Shown here piece after piece: positions 6,277 to 63,310 of a stretch of 64,000 nt of DNA. Source of the DNA: an uncultured Gammaproteobacteria bacterium (lineage in GTDB: Bacteria > Patescibacteriota > Patescibacteriia > Magasanikbacterales > GWA2-37-8); assembly GCA_964634875.1 (NCBI GenBank), contig CAZWKA010000002.1, positions 79,590-143,589 of the forward strand. The letters are read 5' to 3'. The notes below the pieces were generated by a model. That model had not been told where the DNA came from, did no database searches, and saw only the letters and a program-made list of their open reading frames with translations. The translations under genes were made by a program, and so were the position numbers. How positions within the stretch are numbered: position 1 is the stretch's first letter; each line of letters starts with the position of its first letter.

Positions 6277-7251
6277 CTAGGTATTCTTGGCCTGATATGC
6301 CGCTTCGAGTACCATTAATTTTTTGTAATTTTCCGGGCTGGCCAGGGTTTTTATCTCTGCAATTTTACTTTCCTTTGCTTTGGCCGACTCTGCATTAGGT
6401 AGTCGTTCACGTACCAAGATCTGGGCCATTTCAGCGGTGACCGGACGGTTTAAAAATTTCTGCAATTTTTTAACAAGCTGGTTAGGATTAGCTAGTATTT
6501 CTTCGTACCTAACCGAAAGCATTTTGGCTTTCTGGCTTGGTGATAATTTTTTGTAACTTGCGCGGCTACGCTCCATCAAGGTTGTAATCGACATAATCAC
6601 TCGGTCCATTTCACTGGCCTTGGCATAACGCTTGGTTTGGCCGGCTATATACCACGGGTACGGGCCGCTCGCGTCTTTAAAAGGAATGATAAATAATTTA
6701 GGGTCGTCCCCGAGGCGCTTAGCGAGCCCACGCTTATACCATGATGCAACGAGCTCTACCGGGCTACGTTCCAAACTAACGACTTTGATACCTGGAAATG
6801 TTTCTAAGTATACTTTAATATTTGGCATTAACTCATGCAAAATAAAAAAACTATACGCCTTACTTTTATAAAAACGTTTGAGCGCCTCGTCACCATCCGG
6901 CTCTTCACCGCGGTGCAAATATTTTTCAGGTTCCGGAACATTATAAATCGAAGATTTGTCACCCCGGCGATGGTTAAGGGTGCGGCCAATAGCCATTTCA
7001 TAACAATGTGTATCGATCTCACATCGTAAAAGCTCTTTCGCAACTTCTTTGGTTAAAAAACCACTTTCCAATAAAAAAGGGATGTGTTCTAAAAGGCCAT
7101 GATATTGAACAGGCTCAATCCCGGACAACCCATTTAAAATATTAGCTAACAAAAATTTTCCAGAGCGAGAAATTCCCTCAACGATAAGCAGGTCTTTTAC
7201 TAACGGAGTGCGTGATCCAAGTCTTAACGACACCTTTTTTTTTGCGGGCAT
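6277..7251 (-). CDS. PAPS-dependent sulfotransferase family protein
   Basis: P-loop-like 5'-PSB region (GISRSGKFLLANIL) and a 3'-PB-like motif (ERSPVELVASWY, resembling RxPxDxxxSxY). It is flanked by cysQ, cysC and sat. 324 aa. Confidence 0.5.
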   Translation of the reverse strand: MPAKKKVSLRLGSRTPLVKDLLIVEGISRSGKFLLANILNGLSGIEPVQYHGLLEHIPFLLESGFLTKEVAKELLRCEIDTHCYEMAIGRTLNHRRGDKSSIYNVPEPEKYLHRGEEPDGDEALKRFYKSKAYSFFILHELMPNIKVYLETFPGIKVVSLERSPVELVASWYKRGLAKRLGDDPKLFIIPFKDASGPYPWYIAGQTKRYAKASEMDRVIMSITTLMERSRASYKKLSPSQKAKMLSVRYEEILANPNQLVKKLQKFLNRPVTAEMAQILVRERLPNAESAKAKESKIAEIKTLASPENYKKLMVLEAAYQAKNT

Positions 7252-7256
7252 ACAAG

Positions 7257-8093
7257 TTAACTGCTTAAAGAATAAAAATGACGGATCGCTTCAATAAGCC
7301 GATTATGCAAAACACCATTAGTCACCACAATCCCCTCTGGATGTTTGACTACGGCCGTATTATACAACAAAGGTTGGCCGCGCGTATCGGTTATAGCACC
7401 ACCAGCTTCTGTAATCAAGCAATGTCCAGCGCTGGTATCCCACTGGCTAATATGACGCGTAAAAGAAAAATAAATATCAGCACTACCACGTGCTAATTCA
7501 GCTATTTTAAGTCCGCAGCTGCCGGTTTGTTTCTCACTTCCTAATCCCAATGTTCCTAAAAATTCTTTTTCTGCAGCGCTTAAGTGGTTCCGGCTTACCA
7601 ATGCCTCAGCTACATTAAAATCGTCGGTCTTACTTACCCCTATTTTACTTAGTTTATTATCTTGAACAAGAAAAGCGCCTCTTCCTTTTTCTGCTATAAA
7701 ATAACGTTCGCGGGCTGGCTGGTACACAATACCAATAGCGGGAATACCATTATCAACTAAACCAATAAGCACGGTAAATTCGTCATTATGGTCGATAAAA
7801 TCCTGCGTACCATCGATTGGGTCGACAATCCAGACCTTCTCAGCATTAAGACGATCTGCTGAGTCAGCCGTTTCTTCGGATAAAATTGGATAACCGGAAG
7901 TATTTAGAATTTCTGAAATTACCTGGTTACTTGCCACATCAGCTTCGGTTACCGGGCCTTCATTGTTTTCTTTTTCACGCACTGAAAAATCACGGGCGTA
8001 TATTTCCCGGATGCGGATGCCCGCAGCTTCCGCCGCAGTAAGAGCGAGCTGGCAATCCGGGCTGAATTGTCCTTTAAAAGCCTCAGAAATCAT
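7257..8093 (-). CDS. cysQ: 3'(2'),5'-bisphosphate nucleotidase CysQ (inositol monophosphatase family; PAP phosphatase)
   Basis: IMPase-family metal-binding motifs (EE...WIVDPIDGT; WD). 278 aa. There is a 4-bp overlap with cysC. Confidence 0.7.
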   Translation of the reverse strand: MISEAFKGQFSPDCQLALTAAEAAGIRIREIYARDFSVREKENNEGPVTEADVASNQVISEILNTSGYPILSEETADSADRLNAEKVWIVDPIDGTQDFIDHNDEFTVLIGLVDNGIPAIGIVYQPARERYFIAEKGRGAFLVQDNKLSKIGVSKTDDFNVAEALVSRNHLSAAEKEFLGTLGLGSEKQTGSCGLKIAELARGSADIYFSFTRHISQWDTSAGHCLITEAGGAITDTRGQPLLYNTAVVKHPEGIVVTNGVLHNRLIEAIRHFYSLSS

Positions 8094-8617
8094 AGGCGAC
8101 CACTGGCTTCCAAAAAAGCCAGTAATTTTTTAATACTTTCGTCCGGGCTTTCGCCCGTAGTTTTAATTTCAATTTCAGGATTGAGCGGTGCTTCATAAGG
8201 ATTACTAACACTTACTCCAATAAGATTTGTCAGTTCGCCTGACGCGGCTTTCGCGTACAGCCCTTTAGTGTCACGGGCAACGCATTCTTCGAGAGGGCAG
8301 TTAACATACACTTCAACAAAATCAGGGCCTATTTTTTGGCGGGCGGCTTGCCGGTCTTCGCGGTAGGGAGAAATAATGGGTGTAATAATAAAATCATATT
8401 CTACCACATGCCCAACAGCGAGCTCGGCAATCAGGCGGTTATTCTCACGGATATCTTCACGGGTGAAACCCAGGTGTTTATGAAGCGTGTCACGCACGGT
8501 GTCACCGTCAAAAAGAATTACTTTTTTCCCTATGGCCATTAATTTTTCTTTTAGGCCATTTGCAATCGTTGACTTGCCAGAACCGCTTAACCCTGTAAAC
8601 CAAAGTACTGTTGCCAT
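8090..8617 (-). CDS. cysC: Adenylyl-sulfate kinase (APS kinase)
   Basis: Walker A motif LWFTGLSGSGKST and an LDGDTVR-type motif (LFDGDTVRDTL). 175 aa, canonical CysC length. Confidence 0.85.
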   Translation of the reverse strand: MATVLWFTGLSGSGKSTIANGLKEKLMAIGKKVILFDGDTVRDTLHKHLGFTREDIRENNRLIAELAVGHVVEYDFIITPIISPYREDRQAARQKIGPDFVEVYVNCPLEECVARDTKGLYAKAASGELTNLIGVSVSNPYEAPLNPEIEIKTTGESPDESIKKLLAFLEASGRL

Positions 8618-8621
8618 ATAT

Positions 8622-9953
8622 TTATTTATTAGTATCTTGGACAGCCACTTGGTTGGTTTCCTCAGGATTGGTAGACAATAATGGCCAACCTTTGCTTAGA
8701 ACAAATCGGAGCCATAAGCCAGCCGCCTGCGAAGTTACTATGGCTGTAATTACCAGGGTCGTATAAAAAGCAGCACTAATTATGCCTGCTTCATAGGCAA
8801 CGCTAGCGAGCACGATACCAGGACCCCCTCGGGCATTAGTGGTAATGGCTAAGTTTAGAATATCCAATTTTTTGAATCCAGCCAGTCGAGCCGCAAACCC
8901 AACCGAGACGAGGGCAATCAACGATGAACCCAATAAAAAAACAACCAATAATCCAAAAGAAAAATCGCGGTCAAATACTAAACGATACCCTACCAGGGCA
9001 AAGTAAATAGGGATAAAAATAGCGAAAGAAAACTTACTGATGGCGTCCAAGGCATCGGCATAATGCTCCCGCTGTCCTCCAATAATACCACCCGATATCC
9101 CAAATCCAGCTAAGAAAGCTGCAAATACCAAATTGACTTCTAGATAGGCCGCGAGGCCGACATACGCAAATAAAATAAAAAGCACATAGGCCGGCACGGA
9201 AGCTTTATAGAGAATGTTCCAGCGTACGCTACGCAAACTTCTCATCAACCTAGGCATGAGAACCAACGCTGACGCCATGTAGATCGCTGTAATAATGATG
9301 TGAGCTGTGGTGGATCCAACCACACTACCTTCGACAAAGTCATTCGCCTTAGTCAGCGCAGCAGCCACTGCCAGCACGCCCCAAAGAGCAATATCTTCTA
9401 AAACCGCAGAACCTAGTATGAGGCTGGCAAAACGAGTGTGTAATATATTCAAATCGTGGAAAATGCGGGAAATAACTGGAATAGAAGTTACCGCTACCGC
9501 ACTCGCGAGAATTAATAAGGCAGCATTCTTAACTCCAGCTGCACCCACCAACGGATCAAGAGGAATTACAGAGAATAAACCCAGTGCCAAAACGAGAAAA
9601 AAGGGTAAGGGTGTACCAATACCAAGCAACCAAGCGGTTTCACGGCGATTCTCTTTAGAAAGCAATCGACGGACCTGGCTCCCTGAAATAAACATGAGAA
9701 GGAGCACACCGAGCCAGTAAATAAATCCAAGGACTATTGAAGTTTTCTGCCCGAGGGCAGGGTTTTGAAAGAGAAAGCTAAACACAGTTGGGGCAAAACG
9801 GCCGAGCACAAAAGGACCCAAGAGAATACCGGCGAGTATTTCTCCTACCAGACGAGGTTGGTGTAACCGTTCAAAGATATAACCCAGAACGTGCACTGCA
9901 GCCACAAATATACCGAGCGTCAGGACAAATAAACCAACTTCTACTTCAGACAT
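8622..9953 (-). CDS. Cation:proton antiporter (Na+/H+ exchanger, CPA family)
   Basis: 443-aa polytopic membrane protein. The N-terminus is typical of the Na_H_Exchanger family (GEILAGILLGP). It sits between cysC and sat on the same strand. Confidence 0.6.
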   Translation of the reverse strand: MSEVEVGLFVLTLGIFVAAVHVLGYIFERLHQPRLVGEILAGILLGPFVLGRFAPTVFSFLFQNPALGQKTSIVLGFIYWLGVLLLMFISGSQVRRLLSKENRRETAWLLGIGTPLPFFLVLALGLFSVIPLDPLVGAAGVKNAALLILASAVAVTSIPVISRIFHDLNILHTRFASLILGSAVLEDIALWGVLAVAAALTKANDFVEGSVVGSTTAHIIITAIYMASALVLMPRLMRSLRSVRWNILYKASVPAYVLFILFAYVGLAAYLEVNLVFAAFLAGFGISGGIIGGQREHYADALDAISKFSFAIFIPIYFALVGYRLVFDRDFSFGLLVVFLLGSSLIALVSVGFAARLAGFKKLDILNLAITTNARGGPGIVLASVAYEAGIISAAFYTTLVITAIVTSQAAGLWLRFVLSKGWPLLSTNPEETNQVAVQDTNK

Positions 9954-10000: not shown

Positions 10001-12256
10001 CTACTCGTCTTTTACAAAGACCTCTTCTCCTTGCTTTAGCGCATCAACGATCATCTGCGAAATTTCCGGACGCATAAACCATTCCGGAGGCAACTCACCT
10101 TTTTCAAGCATCTTGCGCGCTTCTGTTCCACTGATCTGCATCTTCTCTTCTTCAGAGTGCTCCTTGTCCCCCGCCTCATGGACGTGAGACTGTAATTTTT
10201 TGGAGTAAAAAATCTGGTTAAATCGGACCGGGACGATTCCTAAGTCAGGGAATTGGTCAAAAATCTCATGCGAAGCAGTTGGAGCATAGAAGGCACCAAC
10301 ACCCGTGTGGTCGCGGCCAATGATAAAATGGCTGCACCCAAAATTCTTACGACAAAGCGCCGTAAAAATAGCTTCCTTGGGTCCAGCATAGCGCGAGAAG
10401 GTGCTATACGCCGCAAAAACAGCTTTATTCTTCGGATAAAAATACTGAGACATCATTTCGTAAGCGCGGATTATATATGGTGCGTTAAAGTCCCCGGCTT
10501 TTTTCTTACCAATTACCGGATGGACGAATAAACCATCACACGCTTCCTGTTCTAGGGCTTTAAGCTGGATGAATTCATGGCTGCGATGGATGACGTTGCG
10601 GGTATGAAAACCAACCACCCGGCTCCAACCGCGCTCTTCAAACAAGCGGCGAACTTGGGCTGGGGTCAGCTCGTATTCCTGTGTAGGAGTTTTGCGGCGC
10701 TCAATAAGATCAATCTTCCCCGCTACAAATATTGGTTTCATGTTGCGAACTCGCCGAACTCCCGGATGGTCGGCGCTATTTGTCCCATACAGCTTGGTCG
10801 CAAAATTTTCTAAGTCAAAAGCATAGGTTTCGCTTACGCGAAGGAGTGCGCGATCGCTACCATCAACACCTTTCAAAAGCACTGTATCACCAATTGAAAT
10901 ATTTTTTGCTTCTTCTTCGGAAATATCCAGAACAATCGGAATCGGCCAAATTATACCGCTTGACAGGTGCATTGTGTCGAGGACGCTGGTGACATCGGCT
11001 TTGCCCATAAACCCTTCGAGTGGGCTGAAGGTACCAACTCCCAGCTGTTCAACATCCATATCCAGGTTTTCATCAAGCTGAATGGTGGTCATTTTTTCGA
11101 GCTCTTCTGCAACGGGTTTTTCACGTAACTGACGGTTCACGAGTTTTCCACCGTGCGGCAGTACCAACGACGACGACGACGTAAAGTCAGTGAGATACCC
11201 TTCTGGTACGAGCAGTGTTTCTACTTGTTCAAAAAGCTTCAACGATTTAGTATCTACTGTCTCGTCAACGTGACGGATAACCTTGTTCATCACATTTACT
11301 GTCTCCATAGGGAATTTCCCAATAGCCGTTTCAGCCGACAGAGCTAAGCCGCTCGCACCATCGAGTAACGTATTCACAATATCACAAATTTCCGCGCGGG
11401 TTGGTTTGGGTTTTTCCACCATTGTTTCAAGCAGGTTGGTAGCCACATACACGGGCTTACTCAGCTTGCGAGCTCGCTCCATGATAACTTTTTGCGTAAA
11501 AGGTATCCGTTCAATACGGATTTCTTTGCTCAGGTCTCCACGGTCGATGAGGATCGCGTCGCTGGCCGCAATAATCTCGTCTAGATTCTCTAGGGCATCA
11601 GTACATTCAATTTTGGAAATAATTTGCATCCGATTTTCCGAGGCCCGCGCAACCTCCTTGACTGAAGCCGCATTTCTCATAAATGAAGCGGCCACATGTC
11701 CAATCCCCTCTTTAAGACCAAGTGCAATCGATTGATAATCTTTTTCGGTGAGCGGAGGTAATTTAAAAACTTTGTTGGAACCGGAATCGATAACTACGCC
11801 TTTATTACGCCCGATCGAGCCGGCAGTGATTGCGGTAGCAGTAATATATCCTTCGGCACAGGTGGAGGTATCTGACACTTTTAAAACCAGCGTGCCAAAG
11901 TCTATATATACCAAATCCCCCGGACTTAACTGTTCAATGATCGAACCAGGTTTGAGGGTTAACACATCTTTGTTGCCCAGAATTTGGTCCGTAGTTAATT
12001 TAATCAAAGCATTTTCCTCTAAAAAAATTTCTTTCTCACCCAGGTCACCGGTACGGATCTGTGACCCTTCAGTATCGATAATAAAGGGAATACCGACTTT
12101 TTTTGCGAGTGCGATAAAGTAATGCAAGTCTTCCACGGTGGAATGCGACATATTGACGCGGACGAAAGCAACGCCCTTGGCCTTCAAAAAACGGAGGTCT
12201 TCTTCGGTGCGTGTCGCTGGACCAAGTGTGGCGATGATCTGAGTTTTTTGTTGCAT
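10001..12256 (-). CDS. sat: Fusion protein: pyruvate-kinase-like catalytic domain (N-terminal) fused to ATP sulfurylase / sulfate adenylyltransferase (C-terminal)
   Basis: Residues 1 to about 335 carry pyruvate kinase barrel and B-domain motifs (IIATLGPAT, RVNMSHS, DTEGSQIRTG, ISKIE, DRGDLS, ATNLLETM, PTRAE, SAETAIGKFP). The pyruvate kinase C-terminal allosteric domain is absent. From about residue 345 there is a full ATP sulfurylase (HTRNVIHRSHE, AGPKEAIFTALCRKNFGCSHFIIGRDHTGVG). Confidence 0.8.
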   Translation of the reverse strand: MQQKTQIIATLGPATRTEEDLRFLKAKGVAFVRVNMSHSTVEDLHYFIALAKKVGIPFIIDTEGSQIRTGDLGEKEIFLEENALIKLTTDQILGNKDVLTLKPGSIIEQLSPGDLVYIDFGTLVLKVSDTSTCAEGYITATAITAGSIGRNKGVVIDSGSNKVFKLPPLTEKDYQSIALGLKEGIGHVAASFMRNAASVKEVARASENRMQIISKIECTDALENLDEIIAASDAILIDRGDLSKEIRIERIPFTQKVIMERARKLSKPVYVATNLLETMVEKPKPTRAEICDIVNTLLDGASGLALSAETAIGKFPMETVNVMNKVIRHVDETVDTKSLKLFEQVETLLVPEGYLTDFTSSSSLVLPHGGKLVNRQLREKPVAEELEKMTTIQLDENLDMDVEQLGVGTFSPLEGFMGKADVTSVLDTMHLSSGIIWPIPIVLDISEEEAKNISIGDTVLLKGVDGSDRALLRVSETYAFDLENFATKLYGTNSADHPGVRRVRNMKPIFVAGKIDLIERRKTPTQEYELTPAQVRRLFEERGWSRVVGFHTRNVIHRSHEFIQLKALEQEACDGLFVHPVIGKKKAGDFNAPYIIRAYEMMSQYFYPKNKAVFAAYSTFSRYAGPKEAIFTALCRKNFGCSHFIIGRDHTGVGAFYAPTASHEIFDQFPDLGIVPVRFNQIFYSKKLQSHVHEAGDKEHSEEEKMQISGTEARKMLEKGELPPEWFMRPEISQMIVDALKQGEEVFVKDE

Positions 12257-17637: not shown

Positions 17638-19086
17638 ATGCTCTTCAACTCACTGCCGTTCTTTATCTTTTTTCCCACCGTTACTGCCCTCTACTTTGTT
17701 TTTCCCCACCGCTTCCGTTGGATCGTGCTCTTAACTGCCAGCGCGATTTTTTATATGGCCTTTATACCGGCCTATCTGCTTATTCTTCTTTTTACCATAG
17801 TTATTGATTACATAGCAGGTCTACTCATTGAAAACGCAACAGGTAAAAGAAGGCTTTTATACCTGATTATAAGCCTTGTCTCTAATATCGGCATCCTCAC
17901 TTTTTTTAAATACTTTAATTTTTTTTCAGCCAGCCTCACAAGCATTGCGCACCTTATCCATTGGAATTACAGTTTTCACCTCTTATCAATCATTCTTCCG
18001 GTGGGTCTTTCGTTCCACACCTTTCAAGCCTTAAGTTACACAATCGAGGTTTATCGCGGCCAACAAAAAGCCGAGCGCCATTTGGGAATTTATGCTTTAT
18101 ACGTCATGTTTTTTCCGCAGTTGGTAGCAGGCCCCATTGAACGTCCGCAGAATTTAATCCATCAATTTAAAATTCACCACTCATTTGATTGGCAACGCGT
18201 CGGTTCAGGCTTACGATTGATGCTCTGGGGCTTTTTTAAAAAGATCGTCATTGCTGATAATGCTGCAGCAATTATCAATCGTATTTTTGATTATCCTACC
18301 CAGTTTACCGGGTTGCCACTTATTATTGCAGCCATCTTGTTTACCTTTCAACTCTACTGTGATTTTTCAGGATATTCAGATATCGCAATCGGTTCAGCTC
18401 GAGTTCTCGGCTTTCGACTTATGAAAAATTTTGACCAACCTTTTGGCTCTAGAACATTGCCAGAATTTTGGAGAAAGTGGCATATTTCCCTATCGACCTG
18501 GTTTCGCGACTATCTCTATATTCCACTCGGAGGAAATAGAGTACCACCATTACGTCACTACTTAAATCTCCTCATTATTTTTACTATAAGCGGTTTATGG
18601 CACGGAGCAAATTGGACCTATGTAATCTGGGGCTGCTTGCACGGTTTTTTTATGATATTTTCAACCGCCACAGTGCGCATACGGCAAAAGCTTATACAGC
18701 TTTTCAAGCTCGAACGCTTTCCGCGTTTTCATCACATCTTACAAATGTGCACTACTTTTTCCCTCGTAGTAACTGCTTTTATTTTTTTCCGAGCTAACAC
18801 AACCAGCGATGCGTGGCACATAATTACACACCTCTTTGCAGATTTTAATTTTACATTTTCTAAGCTATTGAACGCACTAGGAACAAGTTCATTTAATTTT
18901 ATCCACCTCCTCACGGCGATAGCGTGTATGGAGATAATTACCTGGGCTGCACGACAAAGTCGTCTTAAAAGCGCTTTTATTAGCACTCCACTCTGGATGA
19001 AGATATCAGGTTATACAACCATAGTATTATGGATCATTTTCTTTGGTTACTTTGGTGAACGGCCTTTTATCTACTTCCAGTTTTAA
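17638..19086 (+). CDS. MBOAT-family membrane-bound O-acyltransferase (AlgI/DltB-like)
   Basis: 482-aa polytopic protein with the MBOAT signature (WRKWHISLSTWFRDYLYIPLGGNR) and the conserved His region (GLWHGANWTYVIWGCLHG). Confidence 0.8.
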   Translation: MLFNSLPFFIFFPTVTALYFVFPHRFRWIVLLTASAIFYMAFIPAYLLILLFTIVIDYIAGLLIENATGKRRLLYLIISLVSNIGILTFFKYFNFFSASLTSIAHLIHWNYSFHLLSIILPVGLSFHTFQALSYTIEVYRGQQKAERHLGIYALYVMFFPQLVAGPIERPQNLIHQFKIHHSFDWQRVGSGLRLMLWGFFKKIVIADNAAAIINRIFDYPTQFTGLPLIIAAILFTFQLYCDFSGYSDIAIGSARVLGFRLMKNFDQPFGSRTLPEFWRKWHISLSTWFRDYLYIPLGGNRVPPLRHYLNLLIIFTISGLWHGANWTYVIWGCLHGFFMIFSTATVRIRQKLIQLFKLERFPRFHHILQMCTTFSLVVTAFIFFRANTTSDAWHIITHLFADFNFTFSKLLNALGTSSFNFIHLLTAIACMEIITWAARQSRLKSAFISTPLWMKISGYTTIVLWIIFFGYFGERPFIYFQF

Positions 19087-21128: not shown

Positions 21129-22899
21129 TTTGATACAAAAACAAATTATTATGAGTGTAGATTAACTTCTTATTTGCAATGAAGGAAAGATCCCATTCTG
21201 GATGGGCGGCACGATCCCAAACAATATAGTTTGTACCATATTTCTTTAAAATACTTATAATCCCCTCCGGATTATTTATTTTTTTGTACTTTTCAACTAA
21301 ATCTCCTAAAATCACCTTACGTCGCTCTAAAAGCTCGGGATCATTTATGGCTATCCGTCGCAAATAATCATAATAGTCAAAACCAGAACGATACCCCTCG
21401 ATCTGTTTGTATTGAGTTTTATAATATGATCCTTCAATTTTACCAACCATATACTTGTGTACTGATTCCTCTATATTATCTCTAAAGTTCTTATTTAAAT
21501 AATGAAAAACGAAAAAACCTTCTTCAAAGCGCTCTAAAGGCGTGTTGGTAAGAGCCGAGTCGCTATGCCAGAATAAATCATGATTAGTATAAATGGTTAT
21601 GAGATACCCGCTGTAATTATCATTTGCCAAGACAACACTTTGCTCGGGCACTGTGTTTAAAATATCAAGAATAGGCCGATACTCTTGAATATCCTGTGTC
21701 GGACCAATTGATGGCAGAAATGAACGGTACTGACCAACAGCAGTATTTAAAAAAACTACCAGTGTAACCCCAGCAAGCAGCAGCTCTCGCGCCCGCTCTT
21801 TAGCCACAAACTGCCAAAGTAAATAAAAATTAACGATAATACCAAGGGGAACGATAAAATACCAATAATAATGACCGATTTGGAGCGATTTACCTGTAAT
21901 AACCTGCTGGTTAAGCGCAACCCATCCAGTGAGAATTATCCCCAAAAGTAACCACTGGTGTTTATTTACCTTCTTGAGAATGATAAAAATAAAAAACCAG
22001 AGCGCTAAAGACACCGCTCCTATCTTACTAAAGATTGGCTGCCGAGTATGACTTGACCAATGGTAGTAGTCCGCCTGCTCTCCAGCGGGAGAAAGAAAAA
22101 ATTTACTCATGGTAAAAAGTTGGTAAGAACCCAATAGAAGCCCTACGCCTGTAATAAGAACGATATGCTTAACAAATTGCCAATCGCGCCGATATAAACA
22201 AATAAGGAATAAAATTCCGTTAAGCGCCAAGGCAAAAGTCCACGCAAAAAAATAAATATAAAATATGATTCCAAAAGTAATGGCGGCAAACAAAATAGCT
22301 ATGCGCTTTCTGGTTATGAAACTCCGGACCAAAGCGTTAAGATAAATAAAAAAGAAGAAAAAACTGGTAAACGGTATCATGGTTCGACCGTACATATTAT
22401 AGTCACTGTAAAAAAGGGTTTTATTATAGACGATATGATACCCGCCCACTATAAATAAAGCAGTCAGGGCAGAGAGTCGTCGGTCGCCTGACAATTGGTA
22501 AACTACTGCATACATGAGAATAATAATCGCCCAGACAATAAAAAAGGTGTAGATGTGTATAAGCAGTACGACATCGATATTTTGACTGATTCCGAGTATT
22601 GTAAACGGCGCTAGCAAAATTTTTTCTCCATACATGAAATAAAGATCTTCCTTGTCTTTACCCTCACGCAATAACGTATTACCCAACGGTTTTTTTTCAG
22701 CAACTTCTTTAACGCGCACCATGTAAATCTGGGCGTCCGAAGGAAAACGAGCTAGATTAATTTTTTGATACGTATCCTTGGTTGCGAGCGGAAAAATAAT
22801 TACTGGAAAAATAATCAAAAATGCCAAAAAAGCACCTGTGACACCAATAAACCAATGTTCTACAAATAAATTTTTAATACGAGCAAAAAATAGTAGCAT
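21118..22899 (-). CDS. Large polytopic membrane protein, putative GT-C-type glycosyltransferase
   Basis: 593 aa with about 12 hydrophobic helices in the N-terminal two thirds, then a roughly 200-aa soluble C-terminal domain. It is adjacent to a GtrB-like GT2. Confidence 0.4.
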   Translation of the reverse strand: MLLFFARIKNLFVEHWFIGVTGAFLAFLIIFPVIIFPLATKDTYQKINLARFPSDAQIYMVRVKEVAEKKPLGNTLLREGKDKEDLYFMYGEKILLAPFTILGISQNIDVVLLIHIYTFFIVWAIIILMYAVVYQLSGDRRLSALTALFIVGGYHIVYNKTLFYSDYNMYGRTMIPFTSFFFFFIYLNALVRSFITRKRIAILFAAITFGIIFYIYFFAWTFALALNGILFLICLYRRDWQFVKHIVLITGVGLLLGSYQLFTMSKFFLSPAGEQADYYHWSSHTRQPIFSKIGAVSLALWFFIFIILKKVNKHQWLLLGIILTGWVALNQQVITGKSLQIGHYYWYFIVPLGIIVNFYLLWQFVAKERARELLLAGVTLVVFLNTAVGQYRSFLPSIGPTQDIQEYRPILDILNTVPEQSVVLANDNYSGYLITIYTNHDLFWHSDSALTNTPLERFEEGFFVFHYLNKNFRDNIEESVHKYMVGKIEGSYYKTQYKQIEGYRSGFDYYDYLRRIAINDPELLERRKVILGDLVEKYKKINNPEGIISILKKYGTNYIVWDRAAHPEWDLSFIANKKLIYTHNNLFLYQIIY

Positions 22900-58151: not shown

Positions 58152-58352
58152 TCTCTCACGAACTTCTATATTCTATAGCTGTAATAAGCATTTTTGAACT
58201 TCCTTAAGCACCTCTGGGGCTTCTTAAACTACTCCTTAAAATACCAAAAAAACGCCTTAACGTCAAATAATACCCCCCTTTTTAAAACCCTCAAGATCAT
58301 TGCTTCTGTAACGCGCTTCTTAGGACGCCGGTCAAGAAAGCTTTTCTTTTTA

Positions 58353-58382
58353 TTATTTGTATATACTATCCTATACAAATAA
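58353..58382. promoter_or_regulatory. Operator-like inverted repeat TTATTTGTATA-N8-TATACAAATAA
   Basis: Perfect 11-bp arms (58353-58363 and 58372-58382). It lies in the divergent region between the ECF sigma gene and the Xis-HTH gene. Confidence 0.5.
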
Positions 58383-58426
58383 TAATTTTTGAACGTAGGG
58401 CTAAAATAAGGTCATTTTTTGATTAT

Positions 58427-58448
58427 TTGTATACACAAGTGTATACAA
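58427..58448. promoter_or_regulatory. Second operator-like inverted repeat TTGTATACA-CAAG-TGTATACAA sharing the TTTGTATA half-site
   Basis: Perfect 9-bp arms with a 4-bp spacer. The upstream direct repeat TTATTTGTATA is shared with the first palindrome. Confidence 0.5.
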
Positions 58449-58485
58449 TCATAACAAAATACAGCACTCTTTTTAGGCCTAAGTA

Positions 58486-58514
58486 TTGACAAAACAATCA
58501 AAATATGGTACCAT
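58486..58514 (+). promoter_or_regulatory. Sigma70-like promoter (TTGACA-N17-TACCAT) for the Xis-family HTH gene
   Basis: TTGACA at 58486-58491 and TACCAT at 58509-58514. A third TATACAAA half-site lies in the leader at about 58529-58536. Confidence 0.45.
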
Positions 58515-58919
58515 TTGTCTAGACTACTTTATACAAACATTATGAATCCTCCGGCCAAGTCCGTGGAATCAAAAGAAATGATACGTGTTTCGATCTCAGA
58601 GGCGGCCCGACTTTTTGGGGTTAACACCCAAACAATTCGCAGAGCCATTAAAGCCCAAGAAATTACCTACGTCATAGTAGGCGGGCGCTACAAGCTTAAC
58701 TTTGAAAATCTTGTTAAATGGTCCCAACGCCACATTACGATTCAGAACAAGCTGGCAAAAAAAGGTATCGGGCAATTTGTAGATAAATGGAAAATTAAAA
58801 ACCCTCTTTTTTCCCCCAATCCCAAATCAATCAGCAAGCCAGGGAGCGAACCTAAAGAAGAGGCACCACTCCTCACCCCTCCTTCAGCTATCACCCCAAG
58901 CTCTTCAAAAAATCCCTAA
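58515..58919 (+). CDS. Excisionase/Xis-family helix-turn-helix DNA-binding protein
   Basis: ISEAARLFGVNTQTIRRAIKAQEITYVIVGGRYKLNFENLVKW matches the excisionase-family HTH (MerR-like). The ORF-track start is a TTG; the probable real start is the ATG at 58541. It has a Pro/Ser-rich C-terminal tail. Confidence 0.6.
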   Translation: MSRLLYTNIMNPPAKSVESKEMIRVSISEAARLFGVNTQTIRRAIKAQEITYVIVGGRYKLNFENLVKWSQRHITIQNKLAKKGIGQFVDKWKIKNPLFSPNPKSISKPGSEPKEEAPLLTPPSAITPSSSKNP

Positions 58920-59025: not shown

Positions 59026-60774
59026 ATGTTTAAACGCATCCACGCTTTTTTTCACACCCACTACCACAGACATTATCATGGCATTTATAAAAACCCAAAA
59101 AAACTTTTTATCTTTGACCTCTTCCTTTTGGGCACCTCGCTCATTATGCTGGGCAGCAGTTTATTCTTTTTTTTCTGGAAACCCGGCACCACCGATCTCG
59201 TTGACCTGAAAATAAGCCTTGGTGACACCCGTATCAAAAGCGGTGAAGCGGTTAAAGTCAGTGTCAATTTTACCAACCGAAATAAGTTTGAACTCACCCG
59301 CCCGACACTCGCCATTCATTTGCCTGACGGTTTTATAGTTGATCGAAGCAAAACTCCGGAAAGTGTTTTTTCGAACAACTCCATCGTTGCACTCGACACG
59401 ATCGAGCCGGGAGCAAAAGGACAGGCTGAGGTCTACGGACATCTTTTTGCAGAACCTAAAACTGACGAGCGTATACTTGCCTCACTCTCGTACCAAGCAG
59501 GTCCCGATCGAGCAGTTGAACAAAAACTGGCTTCATACTTTATCACGCTCCCCGAGAGCATTCTCCAAGATACTCTAGCCATTGCCAGCTCTAGTTTTGG
59601 CAAGCAGTCCGTGCCGTTTACGTATACTCTTAAAAATACAGGTAGTACGCCCGTAAATAACTTGGGGCTTGAGGACACCTGGAATGAACCGCTCGTTCCT
59701 GAAAATAAACGCAAAGATCTGACTTTGGCACCTGGCGAAACAATTGAGCTCAAAGGCACACTCACAGCACCTACTCAAGCCGGAGAGTATACAGTGGTTA
59801 TCCGTTCATATGTCGTTGCCAACAACCAAAAAATCACCCAATCAACCCAGCAAAAAAAATTGACCGTCATCGTTCCTGAGTTACGCTCGGAAATTAAACT
59901 TACCAAACCTGTCGCTTTTGTTGAACCTCGCCAAGAGCTTCCACTGGAAATAAGCTGGAAAAACACCAACGCATTTGCGCTCAAAAATGTACGGCTGAAG
60001 ATCACTCCTACTGCCGGACTTGTTGACCTCGCCAAAACAGGGCGTGAAAATCAGTTGAAGGTTGAAAACGGCGCGCTCGTTATCGATAGCAGCCGACGGA
60101 CAGTGCTAGGACGCGCAGAGCCTGGAGCTACAGATACGCTCGAGATCACCCTATACTTACTCCCTTCGTTCCAAGGCTCAAATAACGCCCCACGCCTGAC
60201 TATCACTCCCACACTCGAAGGCAGCACCGAGCTTATCGAGGGACAGGTTTTTAACGAGAGTAGCGCGCCGCTTATTCTCGCACTTTCAACTGACTTGGCA
60301 CTCAACGCGGAAGTACGCTACTTTACTGCCGAAGGAGACCAACTCGGCCGCGGTCCCTTGCCACCGGAAGTTGGTAATAGCACCAAATACTGGGTCTTCC
60401 TCGAACTCTTTAACACCATTAACCCCACCGAAGAAAATGCTTTAACCATCTCTTTGGCGCCGGGCGTTACCTTTACTGGCAAACAAAGTGTCACCCTGGG
60501 CAAGCCGCTCGGCACCTCTGGCGACGGACGTACACTTTCCTGGCAACACCCCGAAATTCCACCCGCCACAAAAACCGGCTGGTATTTTGAACTAGAAAGC
60601 ACTCCGACCGAAGCGAATATCGGAAAAAACCTAAGCTTAGTGCAGGGCATAACGTTTACTGCCAAAGACAGCGTGGTCAGTAAGGCATTTAGATTGCAAC
60701 CTGGAAGCCTGACAAACGTGCTCAAAGCCAATGACCGCGGTTCACGATCCGCTTCAAAAGTAATTGCACCGTAA
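59026..60774 (+). CDS. Membrane-anchored extracytoplasmic repeat protein (DUF11/CARDB-like beta-sandwich repeats?), His-rich N-terminus
   Basis: N-terminal HTHYHRHYHG segment, then a TM helix (LFIFDLFLLGTSLIMLGSSLFFFFW), then about 500 aa of Thr/Leu/Pro-rich beta-type repeats. No catalytic motifs. Confidence 0.4.
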   Translation: MFKRIHAFFHTHYHRHYHGIYKNPKKLFIFDLFLLGTSLIMLGSSLFFFFWKPGTTDLVDLKISLGDTRIKSGEAVKVSVNFTNRNKFELTRPTLAIHLPDGFIVDRSKTPESVFSNNSIVALDTIEPGAKGQAEVYGHLFAEPKTDERILASLSYQAGPDRAVEQKLASYFITLPESILQDTLAIASSSFGKQSVPFTYTLKNTGSTPVNNLGLEDTWNEPLVPENKRKDLTLAPGETIELKGTLTAPTQAGEYTVVIRSYVVANNQKITQSTQQKKLTVIVPELRSEIKLTKPVAFVEPRQELPLEISWKNTNAFALKNVRLKITPTAGLVDLAKTGRENQLKVENGALVIDSSRRTVLGRAEPGATDTLEITLYLLPSFQGSNNAPRLTITPTLEGSTELIEGQVFNESSAPLILALSTDLALNAEVRYFTAEGDQLGRGPLPPEVGNSTKYWVFLELFNTINPTEENALTISLAPGVTFTGKQSVTLGKPLGTSGDGRTLSWQHPEIPPATKTGWYFELESTPTEANIGKNLSLVQGITFTAKDSVVSKAFRLQPGSLTNVLKANDRGSRSASKVIAP

Positions 60775-60782
60775 TAAAAAAT

Positions 60783-60830
60783 AAAAAAGAACGAAAGGAA
60801 AACTTTCGTTCTTTTTTATTTTTTGTTTTT
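60783..60830. terminator. Bidirectional rho-independent terminator (aagaacgaaag-gaaaa-ctttcgttctt flanked by A and T runs)
   Basis: 11-bp stem and T-run after the repeat-protein gene. The symmetric A-run means it can also terminate minus-strand transcripts from the GC-rich island. Confidence 0.65.
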
Positions 60831-60883
60831 CCAGTAGAAGTTTCTAGCACCTAAGTAAGGTACTAAAAGCTTGGATCTACTGG
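60831..60883. repeat. Structured repeat element copy A (53 nt; terminal inverted repeat CCAGTAGA...TCTACTGG)
   Basis: It lies in the 3' UTR of GC-island gene 1, between its stop codon and the terminator. It is about 88% identical to copy B. Confidence 0.6.
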
Positions 60884-60929
60884 AAAGGAGGAAGAGACGA
60901 CCCAGCCGAACACAGGTTAGACCTGCGTT

Positions 60930-61613
60930 CTAGAACGGGGGCGGCGGGACGGGACGGCGGGGCTTCTTTTTGACCACCTTCTTCTTGGGCGGGACAACGA
61001 CCTTCTTCTTCGCACAATCCTTGGCGAGCACATCGCGATCGAGCTCGAGATCCTTGATGCGACGCTCCGCCGCGCGCTGCACGAGGGCGGCTGAGGTGCG
61101 GTAGAAAAAGTAGGTACCAGAACAGACAAGCAAGCCGACGACAGCAGCCAGCAGACAGGCCGACTTGAACAGCCTGCTGTCATCCTTGGCAGCTACAAGA
61201 GCCTGCTGCGCTTGCAACTTTTCGGCAGCCTCGGCTCGGAACAACTGATCCTTCTGATCGAGACTGGCGGCAGCGGCCTTGCGTGTGGCCTCGAGACGAG
61301 CCTCCAGCTGCTGGGCACGCTCGAGGGCGTCCTTTTCAGCACGAGTTGCCGTGCAGGCCTGCTGCTCCAGCTTATTAGCCCGAAGCGCTTCTTGGTCGGC
61401 CACCTCTTCAGCGGCCGCGGTCACGCGGCAGAGCGCAACCAGAGCGTTACACTCGAAGGGGTGAGCCTGGACCAAGTCGGCCCAGTTCATAGACACGAGC
61501 TTTGCAGGCACAGGAATCGTCTTTTTGGACATGAAACCCTCCAGTAAAAAGTTTACATACCTCTTTGAGGCATGCTTCCTTAAATACTCTATAGCTGATA
61601 GAGAACTTAACAA
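60930..61613 (-). CDS. Coiled-coil single-pass membrane protein (GC-rich island gene 1)
   Basis: Probable start at the ATG at 61532 (MSKKTIPV), preceded by a GGAGGG ribosome-binding site. Ala/Glu/Arg/Gln-rich coiled coil, a TM helix (ACLLAAVVGLLVCSGTYFFY) and a Lys/Pro-rich C-terminal tail. GC-rich codon usage unlike the neighbouring genes. Confidence 0.45.
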   Translation of the reverse strand: MLSSLSAIEYLRKHASKRYVNFLLEGFMSKKTIPVPAKLVSMNWADLVQAHPFECNALVALCRVTAAAEEVADQEALRANKLEQQACTATRAEKDALERAQQLEARLEATRKAAAASLDQKDQLFRAEAAEKLQAQQALVAAKDDSRLFKSACLLAAVVGLLVCSGTYFFYRTSAALVQRAAERRIKDLELDRDVLAKDCAKKKVVVPPKKKVVKKKPRRPVPPPPF

Positions 61614-61645
61614 AACATGCCTTATTTTTAAGGAACTAACGCCTA

Positions 61646-61674
61646 ACTATAGCACATTTTTACCCTTTTGTCAA
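61646..61674 (-). promoter_or_regulatory. Sigma70-like promoter (TTGACA-N17-TATAGT) for GC-island gene 1
   Basis: The minus-strand sense reads cTTGACAaaagggtaaaaatgtgcTATAGT, about 110 nt upstream of the ATG at 61532. Confidence 0.55.
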
Positions 61675-61680
61675 GGTTGT

Positions 61681-61718
61681 CGGCCAAAACAAAAACAACC
61701 GTTTTGTGCGGTTGTTTT
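61681..61718 (-). terminator. Rho-independent terminator (minus strand) after GC-island gene 2 and repeat B
   Basis: Stem aaaacaaccg/cggttgtttt with a ttttgtg loop. The minus-strand RNA then has a U-rich tail (uuuguuuugg). Confidence 0.5.
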
Positions 61719-61733
61719 GGCTTGAGAAACCCT

Positions 61734-61787
61734 CCAGTAGAAGTTCCTACCACCTTGGTAAAGGTAGTAAAAGCTTGGATCTACTGG
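61734..61787. repeat. Structured repeat element copy B (54 nt)
   Basis: Same position relative to GC-island gene 2 (3' UTR, before the terminator). Same outer 8-bp stem, with an inner 7-bp stem carrying a compensatory G-C to C-G change relative to copy A. Confidence 0.6.
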
Positions 61788-61868
61788 AGTGAGTATAAAG
61801 TGATGACCCTTGCCGAAAACGAGTTTTCACTCATTCTCTAGACAGCTCGGGCCACGGAACCTCTCTGG

Positions 61869-62654
61869 CTAGCTGCCCTCGGCCTTCAGACGCTGGGCGC
61901 GCAGATGGGCCTTGCGGGCAGCCTTCTTGAGGGCACGCCGCTCGTCGGCCTGGCGAGCCTCGTTGACCTGGCGCTGCAGGGCCTTCTGGCCCTGTTCGGC
62001 CTCGATCAGCTCGCGATCGCGGGCGTCCACGGCCTTCTCCAACGTACGGGCGTTCGCCTCACTGCTCGTGGCCGCAAAGCGCGCCTCGGCGATGGCACGA
62101 TCCTTCTGGATGAGTCTCTTTGCGTACTCGTTGTACTGGTAGAGACTGAAGGCCGAACAGAAGGCCGTGAACACCATGAAGACGAGGACGAAGCGGCGGC
62201 TGCGTCTCTTGGTTTTCGCTCGGTGGCTCTTGGCGAGGCTGGTGCGAACATCGGCCACAGCGTCGCGCTGATCGATGATGGTCGCGGCGAGCGCTTGCAC
62301 GAGAGCAAGGTGCGCTGCGGCCTGGTTCTTCAGCTCACGGTGGAAGTAGAGGGCAACCGCGACTCTCGCCTTTTCCGCGAGGCGAAGCTCCTCCAGGTGA
62401 CTCTGGCGCGTTTCCCGGCGCTCGGTGATGAGCTCCTGGATACGAATGGAGCGACCCACGAGATCAACCAGCAGCTGCTGGATGATGCGGCGGCTCTGTG
62501 CCAGATCGTCCTGGAGGGTGAGCATACGGAGGCCATGGCTCACCAGGGTGCTGGCGTCCGGCGTCGGATCCGCCTGGACGAGGCGGAGCGGCGGGAACTG
62601 GGGCAGCGTGGCCGAAGAGCCGGGCTTGGCATGCGAAGCGACAATATCATCCAT
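61869..62654 (-). CDS. Coiled-coil single-pass membrane protein (GC-rich island gene 2; architecture paralogous to gene 1)
   Basis: GGGAGG ribosome-binding site 5 nt upstream of the ATG. Coiled-coil regions flank a TM helix (FVLVFMVFTAFCSAFSLYQY). It has the same promoter, gene, 3' repeat and terminator layout as gene 1. Confidence 0.45.
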   Translation of the reverse strand: MDDIVASHAKPGSSATLPQFPPLRLVQADPTPDASTLVSHGLRMLTLQDDLAQSRRIIQQLLVDLVGRSIRIQELITERRETRQSHLEELRLAEKARVAVALYFHRELKNQAAAHLALVQALAATIIDQRDAVADVRTSLAKSHRAKTKRRSRRFVLVFMVFTAFCSAFSLYQYNEYAKRLIQKDRAIAEARFAATSSEANARTLEKAVDARDRELIEAEQGQKALQRQVNEARQADERRALKKAARKAHLRAQRLKAEGS

Positions 62655-62774
62655 GATGGTGTCCTCCCAAAAACAGGTTATACATCCGCACCTAGGGTTA
62701 AGGTGCGTTCCCGCAAAAGCTCAGTAAAAGCTTTTAAGGAAAAACACCTTATATTTCAAAGACCACGACAAACC

Positions 62775-62803
62775 AGCCTAGTACATTTTAGCCGTTTTGT
62801 CAA
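62775..62803 (-). promoter_or_regulatory. Sigma70-like promoter (TTGACA-N17-TAGGCT) for GC-island gene 2, homologous to the gene 1 promoter
   Basis: The minus-strand sense reads TTGACAaaacggctaaaatgtacTAGGCT. It can be aligned to the gene 1 promoter block (TTGACAAAAGGGTAAAAATGTGCTA...). Confidence 0.45.
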
Positions 62804-62835
62804 GATATGCTCAGCATTAAACCTTAATTTTAGCT

Positions 62836-62872
62836 AAAAAAAGAAAGCCCTGGCTAGGTGTACTAGCCAGGA
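62836..62872 (-). terminator. Rho-independent terminator (minus strand) after the Pro-rich lipoprotein gene
   Basis: 9-bp stem cctggctag/ctagccagg with a gtgta loop, followed on the minus strand by a U-run (from the plus-strand aaaaaaagaaag). Confidence 0.55.
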
Positions 62873-62908
62873 CTTGAAGAAGGACTCCCTAGAAGAACAA
62901 CGTGCCGC

Positions 62909-63310
62909 CTACTCAGCCAACACGCAGATCAGCTGCCACTCCTGTTGAGTAGCCGGAGCCGGAGGGGGCGGTGGAGGAGGGGCCGGTGGAAGTGGCGGGT
63001 TTGGAGGGGGCGGATCAAGCCGACCGAGTTGGACAGTGAAACCGTCTTGCCCCGGGGGATTACAGAGCACGGTATCACCACTTCGAACGCACTCCAGCAC
63101 TGTCCTTGCGCGTTCACCGGTAGTGATAGTACATCGGCTTGGCGCTCGCGGGATCACTGCCAAAATATCGGGGGCGACAGGAATGAACTCTACGTCCGAC
63201 TCATGACTGACGGTCGACCCAAAGCCTCCACCAACACCATAGGCAACCAAGGCCGGACAACCTGGTAACAGCACAAGCACACACGGCAAAAAACACGTCG
63301 TGAGCTTCAT
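62909..63310 (-). CDS. Putative lipoprotein with poly-proline C-terminal region
   Basis: Signal peptide with a lipobox-like LLPGC and a C-terminal PPPPNPPLPPAPPPPPPPAP stretch. GC-rich. Followed by a rho-independent terminator. Confidence 0.4.
   Translation of the reverse strand: MKLTTCFLPCVLVLLPGCPALVAYGVGGGFGSTVSHESDVEFIPVAPDILAVIPRAPSRCTITTGERARTVLECVRSGDTVLCNPPGQDGFTVQLGRLDPPPPNPPLPPAPPPPPPPAPATQQEWQLICVLAE

Follow-up and report, generated by a model that had tools for sequence, protein, structure and literature searches.

An uncatalogued structured element with compensatory base-pair changes behind unrelated orphan genes of a CPR bacterium

Two neighboring genes at the right end of the window (the whole 64-kb stretch of DNA that was analyzed) have coding sequences with no similarity to one another (E 5), and each is followed by almost the same imperfect palindrome, which raises the question of what this sequence is and whether it acts as RNA or as DNA. 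The element is real, structured and uncatalogued, with many compensatory changes across four related genomes. Conserved 3'-end stem-loops are a known kind of structure, and this family of them is new. A search of the whole window against Rfam 15 gave no match at the gathering thresholds, and only generic hairpins, far below threshold, at E values up to 10, so that the original prediction was right to assign the element to no RNA family; no description of the element or of the cassettes was found in the literature searched.

The GC-rich island and its two element copies

The host is an uncultured groundwater-type bacterium of the CPR, and the first 52 kb of the window are taken up by a large cluster of glycan and sulfation genes. 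Three GC-rich genes (59–65% GC vs. 44.7% for the window) lie on the minus strand at the right end of the window, one more than the two originally proposed. They are flanked by a conserved 582-aa gene on the plus strand (59026–60774) and by metK on the minus strand (63390 onward). A DUF5667 protein and an ECF sigma factor adjoin the 582-aa gene; along with the source names of that gene's homologues, they assign the host to the Magasanikbacteria-like CPR bacteria. Island gene 1 (g1; 60930–61532, minus strand; GC 61%, GC3 0.72) encodes a 200-aa protein with a coiled coil, one TM segment and a basic, Pro-rich tail, and gene 2 (g2; 61869–62654, minus strand; GC 65%, GC3 0.81) a 261-aa protein with a coiled coil and one central TM segment. 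The product of gene 3 (g3; 62909–63310, minus strand; GC 59%) is a 133-aa lipoprotein-like protein with a proline-rich tail. An exhaustive phmmer search matched g1 only to itself among 1.84 billion representatives, and no relative of g2 was found among 5.8 billion clustered proteins; both are thus ORFans. Pfam and PHROGs returned nothing for any of the island proteins.

Every island gene has its own sigma-70-type promoter and intrinsic terminator. The promoter of gene 1 (61646–61674, minus strand) consists of TTGACA, a 17-nt spacer and TATAGT with an extended TG, and that of gene 2 (62775–62803, minus strand) of TTGACA, a 17-nt spacer and TAGGCT; the latter lies below the threshold of the promoter scan and was read from the sequence, and it is homologous to the promoters of gene 1 and of the single units in two related genomes (L020 and L022, see below). 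The 5' leaders of gene 1 (61533–61645, minus strand), with a hairpin and then a U-run at 61555–61575, and of gene 2 (62655–62774, minus strand) are conserved and structured. At the other end, gene 1 shares a bidirectional intrinsic terminator (60778–60822, both strands) with the convergent 582-aa gene, while gene 2 is closed by a terminator of its own (61692–61718, minus strand). Gene 3, with its own promoter and its own terminator (62845–62875), has no copy of the element.

Element copy A occupies 60828–60887 and copy B 61731–61791, both on the minus strand. Each is placed between a stop codon (60930 and 61869, respectively) and a terminator, which begins 5 nt past copy A and 12 nt past copy B, so the 3' UTR location given in the original prediction is correct. 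Judged from the positions of the promoters and terminators only, transcription would run through both copies. A covariance model built from copies A and B only (R1) scores them at 89 and 91 bits, and a second model, R2, at 70.5 and 72.5 bits. In the 64-kb window R1 finds only A and B (E about 1e-24), along with their weaker reverse-strand images, and the next-best match has an E value of 0.25. Terminator-like matches of R1 and R2 elsewhere in the window were not accepted as family members.

On the sense strand both copies fold alike: the outer stem has 10 bp and the inner stem 14–15 bp, four nucleotides (UCCA) bulge out between them on the 5' side, and the loop has 4–5 nt. In copy A, listed in sense-strand order on the minus strand, the outer 5' arm spans 60885–60876, the bulge 60875–60872, the inner 5' arm 60871–60858, the loop 60857–60853, the inner 3' arm 60852–60839 and the outer 3' arm 60838–60829. 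The corresponding positions in copy B are 61789–61780, 61779–61776, 61775–61761, 61760–61757 (loop UACC), 61756–61742 and 61741–61732. The inner stem begins with two pairs, followed by a 1x1 C/A mismatch and then by 11–12 further pairs. The outer stem of 8 bp described earlier (CCAGTAGA/TCTACTGG) is present and is in reality 10 bp long; the earlier reading missed an extra pair, U-A in A and C-G in B, and with it a further compensatory change. The inner stem, taken for 7 bp, has 14–15 bp on the transcribed minus strand, and the C-A mismatch said to be retained in both copies is a mismatch on the plus strand only, being a G·U wobble on the minus strand.

A and B agree in 48 of 54 alignment columns (89%, close to the 88% first given); the differences, five substitutions (T>C, G>C, A>T, A>G, C>G) plus a single indel, all fall within the inner hairpin. 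Each of them fits the common fold. Two double changes are compensatory, namely the inner-stem G-C/C-G swap that had been noticed at the outset and the U-A/C-G exchange at the base of the outer stem; once, U-A is changed to U·G, and the other differences are in or beside the loop, where copy B gains one pair. The calculated minimum free energies of the RNA are -29.0 and -29.9 kcal/mol on the minus strand (z -7.2 and -5.0) and -25.3 and -26.1 kcal/mol on the plus strand, for A and B respectively; both copies adopt the same structure, which is better on the minus strand. The sequence that comes next is AAAAACAAAA for copy A and GGGUUUCUCA for copy B, and the terminator scan lists neither copy; since the window copies have no U-tract, they are not terminators themselves. 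A protein-coding reading was rejected, as the 1-nt indel between A and B and the changes of loop length in L020 break any frame, and so was a diversity-generating retroelement (DGR) target, with no RT domain in the window and A/B differences that are not adenine-specific. A tRNA-derived att site was likewise set aside (no tRNA in the window).

Homologues in related genomes and covariation

Because g1 and g2 are unrelated and without relatives, syntenic loci were reached through the neighboring 582-aa gene. Two loci with neighbor identities of 64% (L020/L021) and 63% (L022/L023) carry one GC-rich minus-strand gene between the 580-aa gene and metK, in the order gene, element, terminator, and there R1 scores 62 and 74 bits, respectively; L020 and L022 have one copy each in 21.7 kb, at the orthologous spot. 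At a third locus (L024, neighbor identity 51%) there are two GC-rich lipoprotein-like genes, each followed by a hairpin that shares the architecture and differs strongly in sequence, and then by a terminator. The R1 matches in L024 sit exactly 3' of these two genes, with E values of 3.7e-5 and 2.9e-3 that, coming from a short calibration, are rough. The most distant locus (L030, neighbor identity 46%, genome about 32% GC) was matched by R2, the model built from a structure-guided alignment of six copies, at similarly rough E values of 1e-8 and 3e-7. In L030 the site at the 580-aa gene has no element, and the copies are found after a 284-aa lipoprotein gene and after one further gene. Their hairpins are directly followed by a U-run (UUUUUAUUUU or UUUUUUAUUU), which makes the L030 homologues terminators.

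The six further copies, in four other genomes, thus keep the architecture of the window pair. In the window, L020, L022 and L024, each of the six copies has on the sense strand a stop codon ahead of it and a canonical terminator behind it, and in all eight copies the bulge is on the 5' side and the orientation is sense to the upstream gene. No copy was found in L027, L028 and L035–L037, where metK directly follows the 580-aa gene, nor in L025, L029 and L031, where other genes follow it; a weak R2 match in L035/L036 (E 0.05) was not accepted as a family member. The number of units at the locus is therefore variable among related genomes (0, 1, 2 or 3). Population copies of the window, L020 and L022 (L001, L021 and L023, respectively) are 99.95–100% identical to them, so they provide no strain-level evidence of cassette exchange. 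The island-type ORFs encode small membrane-anchored coiled-coil proteins or lipoproteins, with GC3 values of 0.54–0.81 as compared to 0.38–0.51 in neighbor genes, and the untranslated regions of their units have a host-like GC content of 27–44%.

The eight copies come from five genomes and represent only three sequence types. Since MAFFT could not bring the L024 and L030 types into register with the window type, N-padded, structure-guided rows were used for six sequences and a manual alignment, made in Python, for eight. Among six copies, 96.6% of the pair cells are standard pairs and 14 of the 25 pairs are changed on both sides; among eight, 97% of the pair cells are paired and 18 of the 25 pairs are changed on both sides, all these counts being inflated because structure guided the alignment across the types. 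The six-copy values were reached in none of 500 column shuffles, and sliding the registers by 1–3 columns left at most four two-sided pairs. RNAalifold, applied to a plain, unguided MAFFT alignment of the four window-type 3' UTRs, recovered the same helices with 23 pairs, four of them compensatory, and the sole exception in the consensus is one gap cell. In L024 and L030 the architecture persists with sequence identity down to about 40–45%. Selection on secondary structure, argued in the original prediction from the G-C to C-G swap, is therefore borne out by the six-copy and eight-copy comparisons.

The level at which the structure is read was judged from the two strands. All copies share the sense-strand RNA fold. 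In five out of six it surpasses the antisense fold, and in the sixth, a perfect palindrome, the two are equal. In the eight copies there are 13 G·U cells at 7 positions on the sense strand, compared with four C·A cells at 3 positions, which would be G·U on the antisense strand; one of the L024 copies (L024b) has an outer-stem C·A that can be paired only on the antisense strand. With DNA parameters the strands differ by only about 1 kcal/mol, and copy B loses the common fold. The terminator role of the L030 members, as an RNA-level function, also favors RNA. The evidence thus leans toward action at the RNA level, without proving it.

Sequence constraint and the conserved leader and trailer

The element is 71–83% identical among the window, L022 and L020, while the neighboring orthologous terminator is 48–59% identical, near the random expectation of 47% (calculated for random 55-mers); for comparison, identity over the final 150 nt of the adjacent conserved gene is 62–73%. 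The primary sequence and the bulge of the element are conserved much better than the terminator nearby, and its sequence also better than this gene end; the element is therefore constrained in sequence as well as in pairing, which points to a trans-acting reader. On this pattern of conservation, a sequence-specific factor probably reads the element, either an RNA-binding protein or a double-strand-specific nuclease.

When complete units are compared by blastn, two conserved blocks appear, corresponding to the leader and the trailer. The leader block, of about 70–100 nt and 73–81% identity, is detected only among the g1, g2, L020 and L022 units. The trailer block, of 60–88 nt and 74–89% identity, is centered on the element. 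The two L024 units have a common block at the 3' end only (160 nt, 88% identical). Nothing aligns between the leader and trailer blocks, at either the DNA or the protein level. Around the locus, the window and L022 still share 75% identity across 8.4 kb of flanking sequence, and the coding parts cannot be aligned; the latter have therefore been replaced and have not simply drifted apart. For a hairpin this is an odd context: unrelated, GC3-rich orphan genes at a variable locus, enclosed by a leader and a trailer that are conserved.

The trailer starts upstream of the element. In gene 1 (60898–60930, minus strand) it opens with a 10-bp hairpin, GAACGCAGGU/ACCUGUGUUC, which overlaps the stop codon by 1 nt, and continues with the motif GGCUGGGUCG; in gene 2 (61805–61838, minus strand) the hairpin is GAGAAUGAGU/ACUCGUUUUC and the motif GGCAAGGGUC. 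Four 3' UTRs can be aligned over the motif, UUCGGCU(C)GGGUC, whereas the hairpin was read by eye in the two window trailers and in L022 and was not recovered by RNAalifold.

Possible roles of the hairpin

The reading that we prefer, and to which we give about an even chance, is that of a cis-acting hairpin at the 3' end of the mRNA, which probably defines and protects this end, may reinforce termination and is probably recognized by a factor. The element would be a transcribed, strand-specific hairpin of about 25 bp (10-bp outer stem, 3–5-nt bulge, 14–15-bp inner stem, 3–6-nt loop) and the second-to-last structure of the message, 5–25 nt upstream of the intrinsic terminator. As a stable barrier (-28 to -36 kcal/mol), it would set the mature 3' end and protect the message from 3'-to-5' decay, and it may also back up termination. 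The copies form a lineage-specific family of 3'-end hairpins in Magasanikbacteria-like CPR bacteria, the homologues of which in a distant relative serve as terminators. It counts against this reading that a second hairpin beside a good terminator is not obviously needed, that the outer-stem C·A of L024b would pair only on the antisense strand, and that the role of a simple stabilizer leaves the exclusive tie to foreign-looking orphan genes at a variable locus unexplained.

The closest known structures fit in part. Like intrinsic terminators, the element is a stable sense-strand hairpin at the end of a transcription unit, and the L030 homologues carry direct U-tracts. The copies of the window, L020, L022 and L024, by contrast, have no U-tract and a separate canonical terminator downstream, and the helix is unusually long (25 bp), with a conserved 5' bulge and a conserved primary sequence. 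With the REP/BIME elements and protective 3' stem-loops of enterobacteria, which are transcribed and can block 3' exonucleases and stabilize the upstream mRNA, it shares the form of an imperfect palindrome placed 3' of the coding region.

A hairpin that a factor reads could also be a site of cleavage instead of protection. The element would in this case be a regulatory processing site, where RNase III-type cleavage triggers decay from the 3' side, as in lambda sib retroregulation, or it would form the 5' end of a small RNA derived from the 3' UTR. The RNase III substrates T7 R1.1 and lambda sib consist of a helix of about two turns with an asymmetric internal loop or bulge, located in the 3' part of an mRNA, and control message stability. 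The 25-bp helix with a 3–5-nt 5' bulge in 8/8 copies has the usual shape of such substrates, in which about 20 bp or more are double-stranded and often interrupted by an asymmetric internal loop; the likeness is one of shape and position alone, as there is no sequence relation. The conservation of the element above that of the neighboring terminator suits this reading too, since it speaks for a trans-acting reader. The second version agrees with a trailer that is conserved and closes with a terminator, as small RNAs from 3' UTRs usually do; but the would-be body of such an RNA, downstream of the element, shows no conservation from genome to genome. No complementarity to a target was found, and the evidence presented here does not separate cleavage from protection. 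We consider this processing role rather unlikely.

At the DNA level, the variable and cassette-like locus makes a recombination site attractive, similar to the attC sites of integrons. The element would fold as a single strand, be served by a recombinase encoded elsewhere and allow unrelated ORFs to be installed or exchanged between the 582-aa gene and metK. This agrees with the 0, 1, 2 or 3 units in related genomes, with ORFans of atypical GC3 that are mutually unrelated, and with an imperfect palindrome that is always 3' of the ORF in one orientation, keeps its structure more than its sequence and folds better from one strand; attC sites are likewise imperfect palindromes behind unrelated ORFs at loci with a varying number of units, with a structure conserved more than the sequence and one strand that folds better. 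Yet no integrase or other recombinase, transposase or reverse transcriptase was found in the ORFs of at least 150 aa in the 64-kb window or, in L020 and L022, among the genes called up to 10 kb away on both sides, and an IntI and an attI/Pc platform are absent. The ends of the element, (U/C)UCCAG...CUGGA(A/G) in the window type and CCAGACGC...GCGUCUGG in L024, contain no R''/R' cores (RYYYAAC/GTTRRRY), as the original prediction had already remarked. Integron cassettes are mostly promoterless and have attC as their only common sequence, whereas each unit described here has a promoter and a terminator of its own as well as about 120 nt of conserved leader. As conservation runs upstream into the trailer and there is a separate 5' leader, the borders of exchange would not be at the hairpin, and both the conserved leader and the conservation of the trailer upstream of the hairpin are left unexplained. 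In addition, island-free genomes have no empty-site copy, and the L030 homologues are plain terminators of AT-rich genes, which a recombination site does not explain. Taken together, a recombination site of this kind appears quite improbable.

A broader proposal, in our opinion a long shot, is that the hairpin and the 5' leader mark a new gene-cassette slot in CPR bacteria, in which GC3-rich orphan cargo, consisting of mutually unrelated genes for membrane or secreted proteins, is swapped within a fixed expression shell made up of a promoter, a structured leader, the trailer hairpin and a terminator. The hairpin would be the signal for recombination or capture, or an anchor for homology, in a system that resembles integrons and uses different sites and a different enzyme; this part, too, we regard as doubtful to the same degree. 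Phage morons and variable surface-protein expression sites, such as those of Borrelia vsp/vlp with their upstream and downstream homology sequences, offer a parallel, as stand-alone promoter-ORF-terminator units of deviant base composition with conserved 5' and 3' flanks around interchangeable genes for surface or secreted proteins. The present units differ from both in belonging to a chromosomal CPR locus, with no phage or plasmid similarity found (the whole island was compared to phage and plasmid collections by blastn, without a match) and no silent cassette archive seen.

A selfish palindromic repeat of the REP/BIME or MITE kind is very improbable. In favor of it, the element lies in intergenic DNA 3' of genes and is imperfectly palindromic, GTAG/CTAC occurs in the window-type copies as it does in many REPs, and REPs as well can stabilize the upstream mRNA. 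But the element is not dispersed: there are two copies in 64 kb, both in the island, and one in each of the 21.7-kb L020 and L022 loci, at positions orthologous across genomes and tied to one gene class. It is also longer than a REP (60 vs. about 35 nt) and always in sense orientation to the upstream gene; GTAG is missing from the L024 and L030 types, and no Y1/RAYT-like gene was seen in the window. Scans of public genome, metagenome, viral, phage and plasmid sequences gave no copies. The pattern CCAGTAGAAGN{28,38}GATCTACTGG had one match in genome contigs, in Paenibacillus, attributable to chance, AAGCTTGGATCTACTGGA occurred at 17 loci in metagenome contigs, none of which has the 5' arm, and exact-pattern scans of viral contigs returned nothing; such exact patterns would miss true relatives, as L022 has AAA for AAG and L020 GGGTC for GGATC.

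A functionless, neutral remnant of a tandem duplication of the expression unit is scarcely tenable, for although units 1 and 2 are alike in both leader and trailer, and 80–89% identity in 60 nt is not extreme next to flanks that are 75% identical over 8.4 kb (window vs. L022), pairing is preserved through all the differences between the two window copies, the architecture survives in L024 and L030 with 18/25 pairs covarying, and the adjacent terminator has diverged to the random level while the element has not.

CPR bacteria (Patescibacteria) make up a large share of bacterial diversity, and very little is known of their post-transcriptional control; the element adds to it an RNA motif that is supported by covariation, absent from Rfam and tied to stand-alone units. 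If the hairpin takes part in gene exchange, it would belong to a new cassette system; if it has no such role, it is a marker for this class of genes and a candidate handle for an RNA-binding factor. More surprising than the hairpin is the conserved shell with orphan, GC-rich cargo, since searches of 1.84 to 5.8 billion proteins detect no relative of the coding sequence inside the leader and trailer, and this sequence changes from one related genome to another. The genes linked to the element encode small secreted or membrane orphan proteins, which may act in host contact.

Leader and 3' hairpins of the units

A conserved 5' leader of ~120 nt is common to all four window-type units, namely those of the GC-rich island genes g1 and g2 (leaders at 61533-61645 and 62655-62774 of the window) and the single units of the syntenic loci L020 (12310-12440) and L022 (12628-12752) in relatives. 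The leader has no match in Rfam. It is predicted by RNAalifold to form a long helix of 23 pairs, some of them compensatory, with UAAGGUGUUUUUC... paired with ...GAAACGCACCUU. This helix competes with a predicted alternative fold, in which a short GCACCUU-loop-AAGGUGC hairpin is followed by a U-run. In the layout of these predicted folds (long helix versus hairpin plus U-run), the leader resembles an attenuator or a riboswitch.

The last ~32 nt of the g1 leader (window 61533-61565), with the g1 ribosome-binding site ACUGGAGGGUUUC inside this stretch, are similar to the 3' half and flank (61726-61760) of element B, the copy of the bulged hairpin found 3' of g2. The local alignment score is 33, whereas none of 400 random windows scored above 31. 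A further similarity links the apex of the element (ACCUU...AAGGUG) to the leader hairpin, and the leader and the element may have a common ancestry or a common binding factor.

In L024, another syntenic locus, the terminators downstream of the two elements (7766-7805 and 8895-8935) are near-identical, and their stem shows a compensatory A-T to C-G change. The 3' module of ~160 nt is present there in two copies with 88% identity and is a recent duplication as a whole. The two hairpin family members of L030, the locus of a distant AT-rich relative (17650-17708 and 21573-21634, minus strand), are each directly followed by a U-tract and act as terminators. The genes that they terminate are small, of lipoprotein type, and not GC-rich.

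Cargo genes of the island

Seven GC3-rich ORFs were found (window 60930-63310; L020 11914-12309; L022 11941-12627; L024 7931-8593 and 9049-9408), with GC3 of 0.54-0.81 versus the host range of 0.38-0.51. The GC-richness is confined to the coding parts, as the surrounding untranslated regions are AT-rich and host-like. The ORFs show no mutual relatedness, their products are either TM plus coiled-coil proteins or lipoproteins, and all three that were tested are ORFans (searched against 1.84 to 5.8 billion proteins). The third window gene, g3 (62909-63310), encodes a lipoprotein-like product with the tail PPPPNPPLPPAPPPPPPPAP and has its own promoter and its own terminator (62845-62875); both the element and the conserved trailer are absent from its unit.

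A 310-aa ORF on the plus strand (61905-62837) runs antisense to g2. Its product is Leu/Gly/Ala-rich and it lacks a ribosome-binding site context; it is almost certainly a high-GC by-product.

The window organism and the L022-type relative (L001 and L023, near-identical population copies of the window and of L022) were both assembled from sequencing run SRR12762304, thus one sample contains two related species whose cargo genes at the shared slot differ.

Other features of the window

Upstream of an HTH_17 (excisionase/MerR-like) gene (58515-58919), a 41-nt unit occurs as three direct repeats, accompanied by inverted repeats based on TTATTTGTATA(C/T)A...TATACAAATAA. These repeats (58334-58536), conserved at 86-96% in L020 and L022, look like an operator array.

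A long gene cluster for cell-envelope glycans occupies positions 1-52137; it encodes two Wzy_C/TPR proteins and many transferases (GT1, GT2, GT4, and PMT-type). Within it lies a sulfation module, comprising a sulfotransferase (6277-7251), an APS kinase (8090-8617), and a 751-aa protein (10001-12256) in which a pyruvate-kinase barrel, a PUA-like domain, and ATP sulfurylase are fused. The cluster together with this module points to a CPR bacterium with sulfated glycans at its surface.
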